From the sequence record MK373782.1: DNA of 64,000 nucleotides; one strand, 5' to 3'. The translations under genes were made by a program, and so were the position numbers. Source of the DNA: Escherichia phage vB_EcoM_KAW3E185. This document shows positions 36,975 to 41,419 of the stretch, piece after piece (position 1 is the first letter of the stretch; every line of letters starts with the position of its first letter). The notes beneath the pieces were generated by a model that saw only the letters and a list, made by a program, of their open reading frames with translations, was not told the DNA's origin and made no database searches.

Positions 36975-37307
36975 TCACTTATAAAGACACGGAATAGCTT
37001 TATAATGGCATGTTACGAATTTCTGTTTAATTTCTTTAGGTTGTTTAAGTCCCAAAGCCACAAATGGATGTGGAACATTTCGAATTTGTCCAACTGGTAG
37101 TGGAGTCAAATCACCGACTTCAACAAAACCTTCAGGAACATCAGGACCTACAGAATGAACTACACATAGTTCAGGAACTTCACCTTGAACACGTTTACCA
37201 ATCACAAGTCCTGATTCGGTAACTTCTTCATCACCTGCTTGAGCGGGTTCAGAAACCAGAATGACATATTCACCAACAGCACGAATTGGGAGTTGTACTT
37301 CAGACAT
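36975..37307 (-). CDS. 31: Co-chaperonin gp31 (GroES analogue)
   Basis: 110 aa, position next to rIII, middle-type promoter upstream. Confidence 0.85.
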
Positions 37308-37337
37308 CTTATTTCCTTGTTGTTTGACGATAGATTA

Positions 37338-37363
37338 ATAATACCATACTATTCGTAAAGCAT
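37338..37363 (-). promoter_or_regulatory. Middle (MotA-box) promoter of gene 31
   Basis: Minus strand ATGCTTTAC - 11 nt - TATTAT, SD aaggaaa downstream. Confidence 0.5.
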
Positions 37364-37364
37364 A

Positions 37365-37673
37365 TTACATAAGAAGCAAACGTTCTACCGGAGTACCATC
37401 AACCGAAATTACTTTATCAAGGCGGAAAGAACGCCACTGACCTAACTTGGTATCGAATGCTCGAACTGATTCACGAGGTTCAGAACGAACTTCTGATGCC
37501 GGATTGTTATTTTCATATTTGACTTCAAGTTCATCGCGAGAAGCAAACATAGTGCGTACCTCACCGTTAGCCTTTTCAAATACAATACAATGAACGCCTA
37601 CAGACAGAATAGTTTTAATACGTTCACGAAGAACCATAGTTTCTTTTTCAGTTAAAATCATATTATTCACCAC
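37365..37673 (-). CDS. Hypothetical protein (102 aa)
   Basis: ORF overlapping start with cd. Confidence 0.5.
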   Translation of the reverse strand: MVNNMILTEKETMVLRERIKTILSVGVHCIVFEKANGEVRTMFASRDELEVKYENNNPASEVRSEPRESVRAFDTKLGQWRSFRLDKVISVDGTPVERLLLM

Positions 37674-38244
37674 AAAAGTTTCGGATTTGTTCCCAATTCA
37701 GAGAACGAAGATTATTACGAGAGTACTGAATTACTTCAATACCGGCTTGTTTTAGAATGTCTGCCCAATTTTCAGGAGATCTGTCATATAATTCTGCGTA
37801 TACAACCTTTTTAATACCTGACTGTGTAATAGCTTTAGTGCAATCAGGACATGGAGAAAGCGTCGTATATAATGTAGCACCTTCAATAGAATTACCTTTA
37901 CGAGCTGCAAACAAAATTGCATTCAATTCAGCATGGATTTCGTTATTAGCAGACCATGCACTATGAGCGGCCCGATGTTCTTTAGCCAAAACAAAATTAT
38001 CTGCCCGTCCAAATGCTGTAGTGCCTTCTTTATGCCCAGCAACGATGACCGGGCTTGGTTTATTCTTCAACCAACCGTTTTCGGATGCATGTTCGCAACA
38101 GTTTGTACCACCTGAAGGAGAGCCATTATAACCTGTAGAAATAATGCGTCCATCTTTTTCAATGACGGCGCCAACTTTCCATGAACAACATTTTGATTCT
38201 TGAGAAATCAGATATGCAATCTGAAGGTATGTGCTAGCTTTCAT
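37663..38244 (-). CDS. cd: dCMP deaminase
   Basis: 193 aa; zinc-binding motifs HAELNAI and PCPDC. Confidence 0.9.
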   Translation of the reverse strand: MKASTYLQIAYLISQESKCCSWKVGAVIEKDGRIISTGYNGSPSGGTNCCEHASENGWLKNKPSPVIVAGHKEGTTAFGRADNFVLAKEHRAAHSAWSANNEIHAELNAILFAARKGNSIEGATLYTTLSPCPDCTKAITQSGIKKVVYAELYDRSPENWADILKQAGIEVIQYSRNNLRSLNWEQIRNFCGE

Positions 38245-39236
38245 TATTGAACCTTATTAATATAAGTTAACAGCTCTTTAGTTTGTTCCCAACTGATGCA
38301 CGCATCGGTAACGGAAACGCCATAGGACATATTATCAGAAATTTTTTGATTTCCTTCATGTAGGAACGATTCTATCATAATTCCTTTGACCAAATCATTA
38401 GCTGCTAAATTTTTACCAATACCAATTTGATTGCTATAATGCCCATCAGCGTTTGCATGGCTACAGTCAACCATTACATAATGATTCAGACCTACTGCCC
38501 TTGCTTTGTTAGAAGCTTCTTGAATATCAGAAGAATGATAGTTCGGGCCGTTGGTCCCGCCACGCAATACGATATGCGTATTCTGATTACCTTCAGCTTC
38601 AACAATGCCTACAGTACCATCGACGTCCATACCCATATACCGATGAGGCCAGGCGGCACTATACATCGCGTCTGTAGCTACTTTAATAGAACCATTGGTT
38701 GCGTTCTTGAAGCCTACGCACATCGGTAGACCTGAAGCAATTTCACGATGTGTCTGACTTTCAGTCGTACGGGCGCCAATAGCAACCCATGAGAAAATAC
38801 CAGAAAGATACTTAATCGTGAATGGGTCTAATACTTCAGTTGCTAATGGAAGTCCCATACGTAGAAGTTTACGACACAATGTTCGTGCAACTATAAGACC
38901 GTGGTTCATATCAAAACTTCCGTCAAGATATGGATCATTTACAAGACCTTTCCAACCTACGGTAGTTCGAGGCTTTTCAAAATAAACGCGCATCACTAAC
39001 AGAACATTAGGAAGACGAGTTTGAAGTTCAGCCAGACGTTTGCCGTATTCAACAGCAGCAATAGGGTCATGAATTGAACAAGGACCTACAACAATAAGTT
39101 TGCGTGGGTCTTCACCATTCATAATCGAATTAACTTGTTCGCGATGAGAAGCCACTTGTGATGCGTAAGCTTCCGACAAAGGAATAATCTCAGCCAGTTC
39201 TTTTGGAGAAATAAGTTTTCCGACGACAGGTAACAT
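38244..39236 (-). CDS. 3-deoxy-D-arabino-heptulosonate-7-phosphate (DAHP) synthase, class I (AroG/F/H-like)
   Basis: 330 aa; motifs VVGPCSIHD, KPRTTVGWKG, GARTTESQ, VGFKN, HIVLRGG, DCSHANA, IESFLHEGNQ, VTDACISW; stop overlaps cd ATG (TAATG). Confidence 0.85.
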   Translation of the reverse strand: MLPVVGKLISPKELAEIIPLSEAYASQVASHREQVNSIMNGEDPRKLIVVGPCSIHDPIAAVEYGKRLAELQTRLPNVLLVMRVYFEKPRTTVGWKGLVNDPYLDGSFDMNHGLIVARTLCRKLLRMGLPLATEVLDPFTIKYLSGIFSWVAIGARTTESQTHREIASGLPMCVGFKNATNGSIKVATDAMYSAAWPHRYMGMDVDGTVGIVEAEGNQNTHIVLRGGTNGPNYHSSDIQEASNKARAVGLNHYVMVDCSHANADGHYSNQIGIGKNLAANDLVKGIMIESFLHEGNQKISDNMSYGVSVTDACISWEQTKELLTYINKVQ

Positions 39237-39244
39237 AACAATCC

Positions 39245-39370
39245 TTAGGAGATATAAACAGATTCTGATTCAACAATACCTTTAACCGGATTAGACAGGC
39301 TAAGTTGGTAGTGCTCAGATTTATGACCATTCTCGATAGTAATGAGATAGCTCTCATTATAGTGTTCCAT
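39245..39370 (-). CDS. Small hypothetical ORF (~41 aa, start uncertain)
   Basis: ORF only; longer version would overlap upstream gene by 77 nt. Confidence 0.25.
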   Translation of the reverse strand: MEHYNESYLITIENGHKSEHYQLSLSNPVKGIVESESVYIS

Positions 39371-39593
39371 ATACTCGAGTTGCTTCAACAAGACCATCAC
39401 TGCATAATTTAAGATTAGTAATTTGGTCACCATCTTTAGGATTAACGATTATGAGAAAAGAACGTGGAGATTCTTGAATAACTCGTAATGTTGCATCTTG
39501 GAAACGTTCAGACACTTTATTGATGAGTGCTTGAGCAAATTCTTTTACTTTAATCTGAAATTCGTGTACTGTAATTGGGTTTTCACTTAGCAT
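39357..39593 (-). CDS. Hypothetical protein (78 aa)
   Basis: SD gaggaaa; early-type promoter upstream. Confidence 0.5.
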   Translation of the reverse strand: MLSENPITVHEFQIKVKEFAQALINKVSERFQDATLRVIQESPRSFLIIVNPKDGDQITNLKLCSDGLVEATRVYGTL

Positions 39594-39620
39594 TTCTATT
39601 TCCTCATTTGTTGGTAGAGT

Positions 39621-39650
39621 TATAGTATCACAACTCCACCATGTTGTAAA
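39621..39650 (-). promoter_or_regulatory. Early-type promoter (GTTTAC-N18-TACTAT)
   Basis: Upstream of 78-aa ORF; flanking imperfect inverted repeat. Confidence 0.45.
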
Positions 39651-39653
39651 CCA

Positions 39654-39929
39654 TTAAATTGCTTTGCATTCAATTTTTTGTGTACCGAAATTGATATCAC
39701 ATTGGATAACTAAATCGCCGTCAAGATCAAATACCACGATGACGTGTGCAGACCCAGGGAGAAGAGTAATAGCAATAGAATCTACTTGGTCTGGGAGCAA
39801 AGCATTGAGTACATGAGTTACTTGAGCATGAACTCTGAGTTCGGCTGCGTTATCAAGCACTTCAAACATATTATTAGCAATAATCTGACTGAAGACTACC
39901 TTTACAATTTCAGAATAAGTTGGGAACAT
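39654..39929 (-). CDS. Hypothetical protein (91 aa)
   Basis: ORF only. Confidence 0.5.
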   Translation of the reverse strand: MFPTYSEIVKVVFSQIIANNMFEVLDNAAELRVHAQVTHVLNALLPDQVDSIAITLLPGSAHVIVVFDLDGDLVIQCDINFGTQKIECKAI

Positions 39930-39936
39930 AATTACC

Positions 39937-40161
39937 TCAGTGCACAGTATTTACTTTAACTCGAACAACAAATCGCTCGGTTGGTTCACCTACAGGAACA
40001 AACTCTACATGATATTCACCTTTGTAACGAGTATTCAGATCATTACGAATTCCTGCGAGTTTGTTGATTAATGTAGGACTCATATTAAGTCCCACTAGTT
40101 TACGAAGCATTTTGTATGCTTCATCTTCGATTTCATGATGTTTATCGTACATAGTTTTCAT
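39937..40161 (-). CDS. Hypothetical protein (74 aa)
   Basis: ORF only. Confidence 0.5.
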   Translation of the reverse strand: MKTMYDKHHEIEDEAYKMLRKLVGLNMSPTLINKLAGIRNDLNTRYKGEYHVEFVPVGEPTERFVVRVKVNTVH

Positions 40162-40332
40162 TTAACCATTCAATTGCCTGGTCGACGTTATCAAATACAC
40201 CGCCATCCAAACGTTCTTCATGCTCATAGTCCAGCACATCAATACCGAACTGTCCATTTACTAAAGGCCATGCTACAAACAAATATTCTTTATGATGTTC
40301 GATGGCCTCAATCACTTCATATAATCGTTTCA

Positions 40333-40333
<1 letters not shown>
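40142..40333 (-). CDS. Hypothetical protein (63 aa)
   Basis: ORF only. Confidence 0.45.

Positions 40334-41419
<1,086 letters not shown>

Follow-up and report, generated by a model that had tools for sequence, protein, structure and literature searches.

The window, a 64,000-nucleotide stretch of DNA from Escherichia phage vB_EcoM_KAW3E185 (MK373782.1), contains a gene whose product is, as judged from its sequence, a class I-α DAHP synthase with a complete set of catalytic residues that is probably insensitive to feedback inhibition. The distribution of this gene among T4-like phages nearly coincides with that of a peptidase-U32 gene (RB69 gp50), which adjoins the gene for 5-hydroxy-dCMP synthase and is encoded in this phage elsewhere in the genome, outside the window. 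Going by gene association only, we lean toward a role of the DAHP synthase in raising the supply of prephenate for an O2-independent hydroxylation of cytosine.

Profile searches with the 330-aa protein yielded 252 bits for PF00793 (Pfam, cut-off 25.5, E = 5e-75), 428 bits for TIGR00034 (aroFGH, NCBIfam, cut-off 173), and 455 bits for NF009395 (NCBIfam, cut-off 343); the closest solved structure retrieved from the PDB was that of E. coli AroF (6AGM, E = 5e-105). The amino acid sequence identities to E. coli AroF, AroG, and AroH were 51%, 47%, and 43%, respectively. These data bear out the assignment made in the first-pass annotation, which had recognized a minus-strand ORF of 330 aa and ascribed it to class I DAHP synthases on the basis of AroG/AroF/AroH signature blocks, all of which were found again and in the same order. 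The metal and substrate ligands, described there as intact, were invariant in an alignment of 13 sequences that included E. coli AroG, AroF, and AroH: C61, H268, E302, and D326 of AroG correspond to the metal ligands C53, H260, E289, and D311 of the phage enzyme, and R92, K97, R99, T100, R165, K186, and R234 of AroG correspond to the phosphoenolpyruvate (PEP) and erythrose 4-phosphate (E4P) ligands R83, K88, R90, T91, R156, K177, and R225. The roles of the AroG residues are those in PDB entries 1QR7/1KFL. No KDO8P synthase (KdsA) model was among the NCBIfam matches, and the KPRT motif of DAHP synthases is present instead of the KANRS-type motif that KDO8P synthases carry at this position.

The features of the locus are compiled in Table 1. 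By sequence reading, the stop codon of the DAHP synthase gene and the start codon of cd have one nucleotide in common (TAATG), as annotated before. The functional coupling to cd that had been proposed along with this overlap is not supported: the overlap is a local feature, the two genes being separated by one or two ORFs in phages of Serratia and Proteus. In T4, this place is taken by cd.1 and cd.2 alone, in line with the earlier statement that only small cd.x genes are found there. Comparison by blastn set the boundaries of a 1094-bp segment (38248..39341) that comprises the DAHP synthase gene and the spacer fragment and is absent from RB69; the cd.2 homologue shares ~95% DNA identity with RB69 cd.2. 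The DUF7320 match in the spacer covers profile positions 43–76 only (Pfam), and this fragment is probably a relic brought along with the DAHP synthase cassette. The region from pseT to cd is hyperplastic. The promoter-like site, flanked by the cd.3 and cd.2 homologues, occupies the location of the T4 early promoter Pe133295, and matches to its consensus were not enriched versus shuffled sequence. On the minus strand, no terminator-like site was present between the promoter-like site and cd, and the cd.2 homologue is the first gene of a probable early transcription unit.

Table 1. Features at the DAHP synthase locus (window coordinates).
Feature	Position	Strand	Details
cd (dCMP deaminase, 193 aa)	37663..38244	-	PF00383, E = 1.6e-26
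Class I-α DAHP synthase CDS (predicted), phage-specific clade	38244..39236	-	330 aa, ATG start; ORF list and profiles
Shine-Dalgarno AAGGA	39242..39246	-	5 nt 5' of the DAHP synthase ATG; read from sequence
Spacer encoding a C-terminal piece of a diverged cd.2/DUF7320 gene	39245..39356	-	Pfam DUF7320, E = 2e-6
cd.2 homologue (78 aa, DUF7320)	39357..39593	-	PF24005, E = 7e-35
Promoter-like site, T4-early-promoter-like (GTTTACA, 17 nt, TGATACTAT)	39622..39650	-	consensus match only

The conserved inhibitor pocket and N-terminal arm of the feedback-regulated enzymes AroF, AroG, and AroH were not found in the phage enzyme. In the alignment, its N-terminus is 8 residues shorter than that of AroG and 9 shorter than that of AroF, and the counterparts of AroG D6 and D7 are missing. 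The deficit versus AroG amounts to 20 aa in total, and not to about 20 aa at both ends as first annotated, the remainder being accounted for by small gaps within the sequence and a C-terminal shortening. In addition, the pocket changes P150I, Q151K, S180P, and F209Y (AroG numbering) are fixed in 27–28 of 28 phage sequences; bacterial relatives keep P, Q, S, and F at these positions in 91–98 of 98 sequences. A Gly is found at the position of AroG S211, as in the Tyr-sensitive AroF. The isoenzyme-specific NCBIfam models were missed (AroG, 363 versus a cut-off of 568; AroH, 386 versus a cut-off of 463). In AroG, D6 and D7 are part of the Phe site (PDB 1KFL), and D6X-D7X and S180F variants are Phe-resistant (PMC6520568). 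Thus, the phage enzyme is altered at the same positions as engineered feedback-resistant AroG, including loss of the N-terminal Asp pair, but its changes are natural, multiple, and invariant throughout the clade. Since the N-terminal inhibitor-binding residues are missing and four pocket residues are replaced, the phage DAHP synthase is probably insensitive to feedback inhibition, and the replacements lend this suggestion, initially derived from the N-terminal loss, additional support at the sequence level. The invariant, remodeled pocket may also bind another ligand or a new effector.

Homologues of the DAHP synthase were found in 212 phage records, many of them already annotated as DAHP synthase, aroF, or AroG. 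The family corresponds to PHROG 5045, and a phage homologue has been named as an auxiliary metabolic gene (PMC11845039). The gene as such is already known in phages, contrary to the novelty initially attributed to it, and what is new is its context. A full-text literature search retrieved neither work on the function of a DAHP synthase from phages nor a paper joining prephenate, U32, and phage. In a tree with bacterial relatives, the phage enzymes formed a single clade (200/200 bootstraps), separate from AroF, AroG, and AroH, with a top identity of 55% to any bacterial enzyme. A recent capture from a host was rejected because identity to the closest bacterial homologues is only 50–55%, the phage enzymes are monophyletic, and the GC3 value of 0.30 is phage-genome-like. 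The dN/dS values of 0.18–0.25 point to purifying selection, and the same locus is kept across at least seven genera. Class I-α matches in giant-virus MAG bins are unrelated.

Co-occurrence of the DAHP synthase and U32 genes in T4-like phages was compared via organism-name counts, identity-band accounting, and sampled accessions. The numbers of records were 212 for DAHP synthase and 221 for U32, with 124/136 for Escherichia, 25/26 for Klebsiella, 12/14 for Shigella, 7/7 for Proteus, 6/7 for Serratia, 4/4 for Enterobacter, and 3/3 for Edwardsiella; in the sampled lists many accessions were common to both. This co-occurrence could partly result from shared ancestry. An AroQ chorismate mutase gene is located between the U32 and ThyA-like genes in 51 records from more than eight host genera, the product from Entb_45 (ENTB45_105) scoring 40.9 bits with PF01817 (cut-off 27). 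Mosigviruses, to which this phage belongs, lack this mutase, and a tblastn search with it gave no record from the genus. The 79-aa RB69p049, which occupies the chorismate mutase slot, was rejected as a diverged mutase: it showed no similarity to the Entb_45 enzyme and no Pfam (CM_2 included), NCBIfam, or PDB signal, and phages of Yersinia and Pectobacterium have a gene of this type in addition to a true mutase. In phages of the strictly aerobic Acinetobacter, the arabinose and ThyA-like module is present, but the genes for U32, chorismate mutase, and DAHP synthase are all absent, and Klebsiella Jiaodaviruses contain these three genes without arabinose-5-phosphate isomerase; these patterns indicate that the three genes track each other and not arabinosylation. 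RB69 has 5-hydroxycytosine in its DNA, yet it lacks DAHP synthase and chorismate mutase, so the DAHP synthase is dispensable, at least aerobically.

RB69 gp50 matched the Pfam family Peptidase_U32 (PF01136) with 42.2 bits (cut-off 22.4), and the top PDB match of its AF2 model (pLDDT 89) was the U32 peptidase 5D88 (E = 4e-8, target-normalized TM 0.69). RlhA (ho5C in 23S rRNA) and TrhP (ho5U in tRNA) likewise belong to Pfam U32 and have a U32 fold. In contrast to these enzymes, the phage protein presumably acts on a deoxynucleotide or on DNA; its Cys pattern is different, and its identity to RlhA, TrhP, UbiU, and UbiV is as low as 14–23%. Pairwise BLASTP with these four proteins and comparison with PDB sequences gave nothing significant; membership in the U32 family is based only on the Pfam profile match and on fold similarity. 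The canonical Cys-rich stretch of RlhA, TrhP, and UbiU/UbiV is missing in the alignment, and the phage subfamily has 10 invariant Cys residues, including a C-x4-C-x3-C-x2-C motif near the C-terminus. The authors of a study in NAR 2026 referred to gp50 as a 'sugar or heterocycle reductase'.

The same U32 subfamily was also identified in viral contigs that are not T4-like, at a distance of 0–620 bp from class I-β DAHP synthases. These comprised two bare cores of 248 aa and four fusions of DAHP synthase with chorismate mutase, the fused mutase domains being detected with E values of about 1e-12. The same two activities are joined in the bacterial bifunctional DAHP synthase/chorismate mutase (NF009239); the mutase domain is C-terminal in the viral proteins, and the enzyme encoded in the window differs from both in being class I-α and unfused. 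In a reverse scan starting from viral class I-β DAHP synthase loci, chorismate mutase fusions accounted for 13 of 15, and a U32 gene was adjacent in 7 of 14 contigs. The assumption that every phage DAHP synthase is linked to U32 was rejected, as Aeromonas HJ05 and unverified fecal contigs have none nearby.

The U32 enzymes RlhA and TrhP hydroxylate pyrimidines at C5 using prephenate. To form ho5C2501 in 23S rRNA, RlhA requires prephenate, which donates the hydroxyl group; TrhP likewise depends on prephenate, and TrhO depends on O2 (PMC13602947, PMC12783734). The 5-hydroxy-dCMP synthase already known from phages works with FMN and O2 (PMC13326640). The position of the gp50 homologue beside this O2-dependent cytosine C5 hydroxylase resembles the logic by which O2-dependent TrhO is paired with O2-independent TrhP (PMC13602947). 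In the role that we favor, the DAHP synthase would be expressed early, probably on one transcript with cd, and would form DAHP from PEP and E4P. With the remodeled pocket, Phe, Tyr, and Trp would probably no longer be inhibitory, and the host shikimate pathway would be re-opened during infection, rendering prephenate plentiful. As suggested by the adjacency of chorismate mutase and DAHP synthase genes, the phage U32 protein would use this prephenate as hydroxyl donor, with cytosine as the putative substrate. The cytosine substitute of Mosigvirus DNA, 5-hydroxycytosine, would in this way be formed along an O2-independent path running parallel to the FMN/O2-dependent ThyA-like hydroxylase as TrhP does alongside TrhO in tRNA modification. 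Consumption of prephenate in the modification of cytosines in phage DNA has a precedent in the CmoA/CmoX carboxymethylcytosine pathway of Synechococcus phage S-B43, the authors of which raised prephenate availability as an issue (PMC12783734); there, however, the chemistry proceeds via Cx-SAM, and no DAHP synthase was reported for the pathway.

It is unlikely that the gene instead serves general metabolism, with a deregulated DAHP synthase raising chorismate to feed the formation of aromatic amino acids (for phage protein synthesis) or of pABA/folate (dTMP synthesis, virion folate). An intact and probably deregulated enzyme encoded in a nucleotide-metabolism region beside cd would suit such a function, a role in aromatic amino acid supply has been proposed for the KLB31 homologue (PMC11845039), and the DAHP synthase of Aeromonas HJ05, which occurs without U32, implies that other uses exist. 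The first-pass annotation had favored this purpose, citing the phage's own DHFR and thymidylate synthase, an argument graded as weak here: T4 and hundreds of T-even relatives, which make up most of this group, share frd, td, and the virion design with the carriers of the DAHP synthase but lack this enzyme, the distribution of which follows U32 and not DHFR or thymidylate synthase. Tracking with the U32 gene and chorismate mutase points to prephenate and away from the pABA/folate branch, since the recurrent and often fused mutase partner would commit carbon to prephenate at the expense of pABA/folate and Trp. Moreover, the cytosine analogue of 5-hydroxycytosine phages needs no methylene-THF (PMC13326640).

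A passenger or moron gene without an infection role of its own, or one acting mainly as a drain on host PEP and E4P, would fit the hyperplastic location, the absence from RB69, and the cd.2 relic as the mark of a mobile cassette. We regard this as improbable in view of the conserved locus with a dN/dS of about 0.2, the invariant active-site and clade-specific pocket residues, and the independent recruitment of a second DAHP synthase class beside U32. A use of arabinose 5-phosphate with PEP in a KDO8P synthase-like reaction, or a diversion of pentose phosphate flux to UDP-arabinose for DNA, was suggested by the arabinose-5-phosphate isomerase of many carriers and by the presence of KDO8P synthase in the same Pfam family, but has very little to commend it, as the KPRT motif and all E4P/PEP ligands are DAHP synthase-type, the aroFGH equivalog and no KDO8P synthase model was matched, and the link to arabinosylation was rejected on the isomerase-free Klebsiella Jiaodaviruses and on 57 Acinetobacter phage records with the isomerase and without a phage-type DAHP synthase homologue.

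The proposed prephenate supply for cytosine hydroxylation can be extended to a tentative scheme, to which we assign slightly less than an even chance: 5-hydroxycytosine phages of facultative anaerobes would possess a dispersed system made up of a deregulated DAHP synthase (that of the window), a chorismate mutase present in many genera, and a divergent Fe-S U32 hydroxylase. The system would form 5-hydroxy-pyrimidine nucleotides without O2 and with prephenate as oxygen donor, and two DAHP synthase classes would have been independently recruited for it. RB69-type phages prey on gut Enterobacterales. Their known route to 5-hydroxycytosine needs molecular oxygen (PMC13326640), and the proposed link of the DAHP synthase to cytosine hydroxylation, if true, would explain how their DNA is modified anaerobically. 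It would also assign functions to the conserved 'peptidase' gp50 and the small chorismate mutase, make what is routinely annotated as a metabolic gene a member of a pathway for DNA hypermodification, and add DNA precursors to RNA and quinones as targets of prephenate-dependent hydroxylation. The fitness of the phages, and how sensitive they are to modification-dependent defenses, would then depend on oxygen and on the state of the host shikimate pathway, which would be relevant to phage therapy with Mosigviruses, and a naturally deregulated DAHP synthase would be on offer for metabolic engineering. With ~64,000 cytosines per genome, the demand on such a dispersed system would be one of bulk metabolism.

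The 330-aa product of the window gene was assigned to class I DAHP synthases by profile searches (Pfam DAHP_synth_1, E=5e-75; NCBIfam aroFGH equivalog TIGR00034, 428 bits versus a cut-off of 173), in accord with the first-pass annotation. Its closest solved structure was E. coli AroF (6AGM, E=5e-105; residues 8-327 versus 17-344). In an alignment with E. coli AroG, AroF and AroH (from NC_000913) and nine phage-type homologues, the metal ligands C53, H260, E289 and D311 and the PEP and E4P ligands R83, K88, R90, T91, R156, K177 and R225 were invariant, as the motifs picked out earlier by eye had indicated. The accompanying claim of about 20 missing residues at each end relative to AroG was wrong: the phage enzyme has 20 aa fewer overall, and its N terminus is shorter by eight (by nine versus AroF). 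The gene is genuine, intact and previously annotated; its product is a class I-alpha DAHP synthase of a separate phage type, with predicted activity.

Homologues were found by tblastn in 212 phage records (139 at ≥95% identity, 47 at 60-80% and 26 below 60%). Many of these are already labelled 'phospho-2-dehydro-3-deoxyheptonate aldolase', aroF or AroG, the gene belongs to PHROG 5045 (category 'moron, auxiliary metabolic gene'), and a 2025 paper (PMC11845039) counts the homologue of Klebsiella phage KLB31 among auxiliary metabolic genes, relating it to aromatic amino acids. The identity assigned here is therefore not new. Literature searches retrieved no functional study of a phage DAHP synthase. 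Over window positions 37000-41300, identity was 99.4% with Escherichia phages vB_EcoM_WFK and WFL6982 and 98-99% with many Mosigviruses (RB69 relatives). The best 120 database homologues split into a phage type (319-343 aa, 55-98% identity) and a bacterial type (341-388 aa, ≤55%), and 28 phage-type sequences formed one clade in all of 200 neighbour-joining bootstraps. With 41% GC and a GC3 of 0.30 the gene is phage-like and unlike E. coli (GC3 of the Proteus-phage copy, 0.18); dN/dS between genera was 0.18-0.25, with dS saturated. Class I-alpha enzymes of 40-48% identity also occurred in dozens of giant-virus MAG bins (IMG/VR GVMAG contigs L097-L160), where they could be true giant-virus metabolic genes or binning contamination.

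What appears new in the enzyme is the remodelled allosteric site of the phage variant, together with its functional context. Compared with E. coli AroG, the phage clade is changed at P150 (Ile in 27/28, versus Pro in 91/98 bacterial relatives), Q151 (Lys or Arg in 28/28, versus Gln in 98/98), S180 (Pro in 28/28, versus Ser in 97/98) and F209 (Tyr in 28/28, versus Phe in 97/98); these positions, P150, Q151 and F209 among them, line the AroG inhibitor pocket. The N-terminal arm is missing, with 8-12 residues before the invariant Pro versus at least 16 in the 98 bacterial relatives. The Phe site of AroG includes D6 and D7 (PDB 1KFL), and D6X-D7X and S180F variants are Phe-resistant (PMC6520568). 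The predicted feedback insensitivity of the phage clade is thus well supported by inference from the lost arm and the fixed pocket substitutions. Because the new pocket residues are invariant rather than degenerate, the remodelled pocket may bind a new effector.

The proposed survey of spread and flanking synteny placed the gene between pseT and cd (dCMP deaminase) at every locus examined. It lies directly before cd in Mosigviruses, Klebsiella phage kv_tblp8 and one divergent metagenomic T4-like contig; Serratia X20 has one ORF in between, and Proteus PM2 has two. The TAATG overlap noted earlier is present at 38244, but it is therefore positional, and the suggested coupling to cd is not conserved. 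T4 carries cd.1 and cd.2 at the corresponding place, in line with the first-pass annotation. RB69 lacks the gene and its cd.2 abuts cd; relative to RB69, the window holds a 1094-bp insertion (38248..39341). TAATGA occurs at both junctions of this segment, and the cd.2 fragment in its spacer reads SYLITIENGHKSEHYQLSLSNPVKGIVESESVYIS, the intact cd.2 just upstream SFLIIVNPKDGDQITNLKLCSDGLVEATRVYGTL. The fragment and the repeated TAATGA suggest that T4-like phages exchanged this cassette through recombination. No terminator-like site was found on the (-) strand between the promoter-like site and cd. RB69 cd as annotated (locus L013:4243-4752) has 169 aa and ends '...ILKPSWY*', whereas the longer window cd runs on '...ILKQAGIEVIQYSRNN...'. 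The short form apparently results from a frameshift or an error of sequencing in the RB69 entry, like the split ORFs described by others in its genes 46/47 and 52/53.

Coordinates of features in the window and of viral fusion genes
Feature	Position	Strand	Basis or context
DAHP synthase ORF, 330 aa, ATG start, TAA stop	38244..39236	-	ORF call
AAGGA ribosome-binding site	5 nt upstream of DAHP synthase ORF	-	read from sequence
cd, dCMP deaminase, 193 aa	37663..38244	-	ATG shares 1 base with DAHP synthase stop (TAATG)
Spacer, 111 nt, C-terminal ~36 aa of divergent cd.2/DUF7320	39245-39356	-	upstream of DAHP synthase gene; fragment encoded by first 111 nt of 1094-bp insertion
T4-early-promoter-like site, GTTTACA, 17 nt, TGATACTAT	39650..39622	-	position of annotated T4 early promoter
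I-beta DAHP synthases with C-terminal AroQ domain	L046:8399-9430; L049:7290-8354; L051:8323-9384; L048:3-968; L069-L080		IMG/VR contigs, 13/15 viral loci

The DNA of RB69 and its relatives contains arabinosylated 5-hydroxycytosine, and dCMP is hydroxylated by the FMN- and O2-dependent ThyA homologue gp48 (PMC13326640). RB69 gp50, encoded in the same module, is a Pfam Peptidase_U32 protein; PMC13326640 enters it only as 'sugar or heterocycle reductase' and mentions neither prephenate nor the shikimate pathway nor U32. An AF2 model of a gp50 homologue (pLDDT 89) gave U32 peptidase 5D88 as top PDB match. The U32 proteins characterised so far depend on prephenate for hydroxylation: RlhA forms 5-hydroxycytidine in 23S rRNA and TrhP 5-hydroxyuridine in tRNA, with TrhO as the O2-dependent alternative to TrhP (PMC13602947, PMC12783734). 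Unlike RlhA and TrhP, the highly divergent phage subfamily (282 homologues) lacks the 'GALCxAYSGRC' stretch and has its own ten invariant cysteines, including a C-terminal C-x4-C-x3-C-x2-C cluster (subfamily alignments A4 and A6), which suggests a different Fe-S arrangement.

The U32 gene was present in 221 phage records; for scale, cd at ≥60% identity occurs in about 1000 T-even-like records. Counted by the first word of the organism name, its spread almost equalled that of DAHP synthase (DAHP synthase/U32: Escherichia 124/136, Klebsiella 25/26, Shigella 12/14, Proteus 7/7, Serratia 6/7, Enterobacter 4/4, Edwardsiella 3/3), and many accessions were common to both lists (among them Entb_45, R3_1, kv_tblp8, Kpn BM7, Clarke_MM3, phiP4-3, Pm5461, EcS1, WFK). 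Enterobacter phage Entb_45 has an AroQ chorismate mutase gene (79 aa; PF01817, 40.9 bits versus a cut-off of 27) between the U32 and ThyA-like genes, and it overlaps both neighbours at its ends. The mutase was found in 51 records, each time in this U32/ThyA-like slot, from phages of Klebsiella, Serratia, Yersinia, Enterobacter, Edwardsiella, Erwinia, Pectobacterium, Providencia, Morganella, Kosakonia and Shewanella as well as coliphage EcS1; Proteus phages gave a weaker match. In Mosigviruses an unrelated 79-aa protein fills the slot. This conserved protein, RB69p049 (L003:4257-4496, phrog_8601), follows the U32 gene and recurs in five other loci (L021, L023, L028, L031, L036); Pectobacterium PM2 and Yersinia phages carry both, in the order U32, p049, mutase, ThyA-like. 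Identity-band accounting indicates U32 and mutase without DAHP synthase in phages of Yersinia and Shewanella; RB69 has only U32 of the three.

Arabinose-5-phosphate isomerase occurred in 57 Acinetobacter phage records. Acinetobacter Lazarusvirus Kimel has isomerase, pyrophosphorylase, phosphatase and ThyA-like genes in matching order, with no gene between the last two and no U32 or mutase match, whereas Klebsiella Jiaodaviruses have U32, mutase and DAHP synthase without the isomerase. DAHP synthase, chorismate mutase and U32 thus track each other and facultatively anaerobic hosts, not arabinosylation. Klebsiella was missing among the top organism names of the isomerase search, and no isomerase lay within 10 kb of the Klebsiella Jiaodavirus and Marfavirus modules (L026, L027, L022), which hold U32, ThyA-like and DAHP synthase genes, with the mutase additionally in Jiaodavirus. 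Cytosine in these Klebsiella phages may be hydroxylated but otherwise decorated, or left bare.

In the best-supported model, the phage enzyme, if active and uninhibited, would re-open the shikimate pathway at its feedback-controlled first step and so make prephenate available for hydroxylating cytosine nucleotides without O2 by a U32-type reaction; prephenate use and substrate of the U32 protein are likewise inferred. The demand would be large: with 37.9% G+C and about 169 kb, a genome has about 64,000 cytosines, giving several million hydroxylations per burst by our arithmetic. Against the model, RB69 manages without the DAHP synthase gene, Mosigviruses lack the mutase, the U32 protein has diverged strongly, some phage DAHP synthases have no U32 link, and co-occurrence in T4-like phages is in part phylogenetic. 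A supply of aromatic amino acids or folate, as first suggested, is possible, but accounts for neither the gene distribution nor the chorismate mutase partner. The prephenate context is new and testable, with no match in the searchable literature.

An IMG/VR scan for the U32 subfamily gave 44 loci, about 28 of them outside T4-like phages, to which three separately fetched contigs (L018-L020) were added. In six of these non-T4-like loci (L019, L035, L046, L048, L049, L051) a PF00793 gene lay 0-620 bp from U32. All six were class I-beta DAHP synthases by NCBIfam (TIGR01361, 114-216 bits), two as bare 248-aa catalytic cores and four fused to a C-terminal chorismate mutase domain; by the same scoring they are not KDO8P synthases (30-63 bits). 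The reverse scan from the I-beta enzymes yielded 15 viral loci in 14 contigs, 13 of the 15 being mutase fusions, with U32 adjacent in 7/14 contigs and elsewhere on one more. In NF009239, the bacterial bifunctional model, the DAHP synthase region lies towards the C terminus (positions 114-357, approximately, of the 360 in the profile) and the mutase region presumably towards the N terminus, the reverse of the viral order. Going by these I-alpha (T4-like) and I-beta (other contigs) associations, two DAHP synthase classes have been recruited next to or along with one U32 subfamily and a chorismate mutase. To our knowledge, prephenate is the sole metabolite that requires exactly these two enzymes.

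In two further contigs, U32 was translationally coupled to a dCMP deaminase gene amid DNA-precursor genes. The homologue directly follows the deaminase (L018:7447-9086, with a 4-nt overlap; L020:7504-9083) on large viral contigs outside the T4-like group that also encode a DnaE-type polymerase, UDG and thymidylate kinase. No ThyA-like gene was found near U32 in either, and U32 may be the sole enzyme that hydroxylates pyrimidines in these contigs, perhaps with dUMP or dCMP as substrate.
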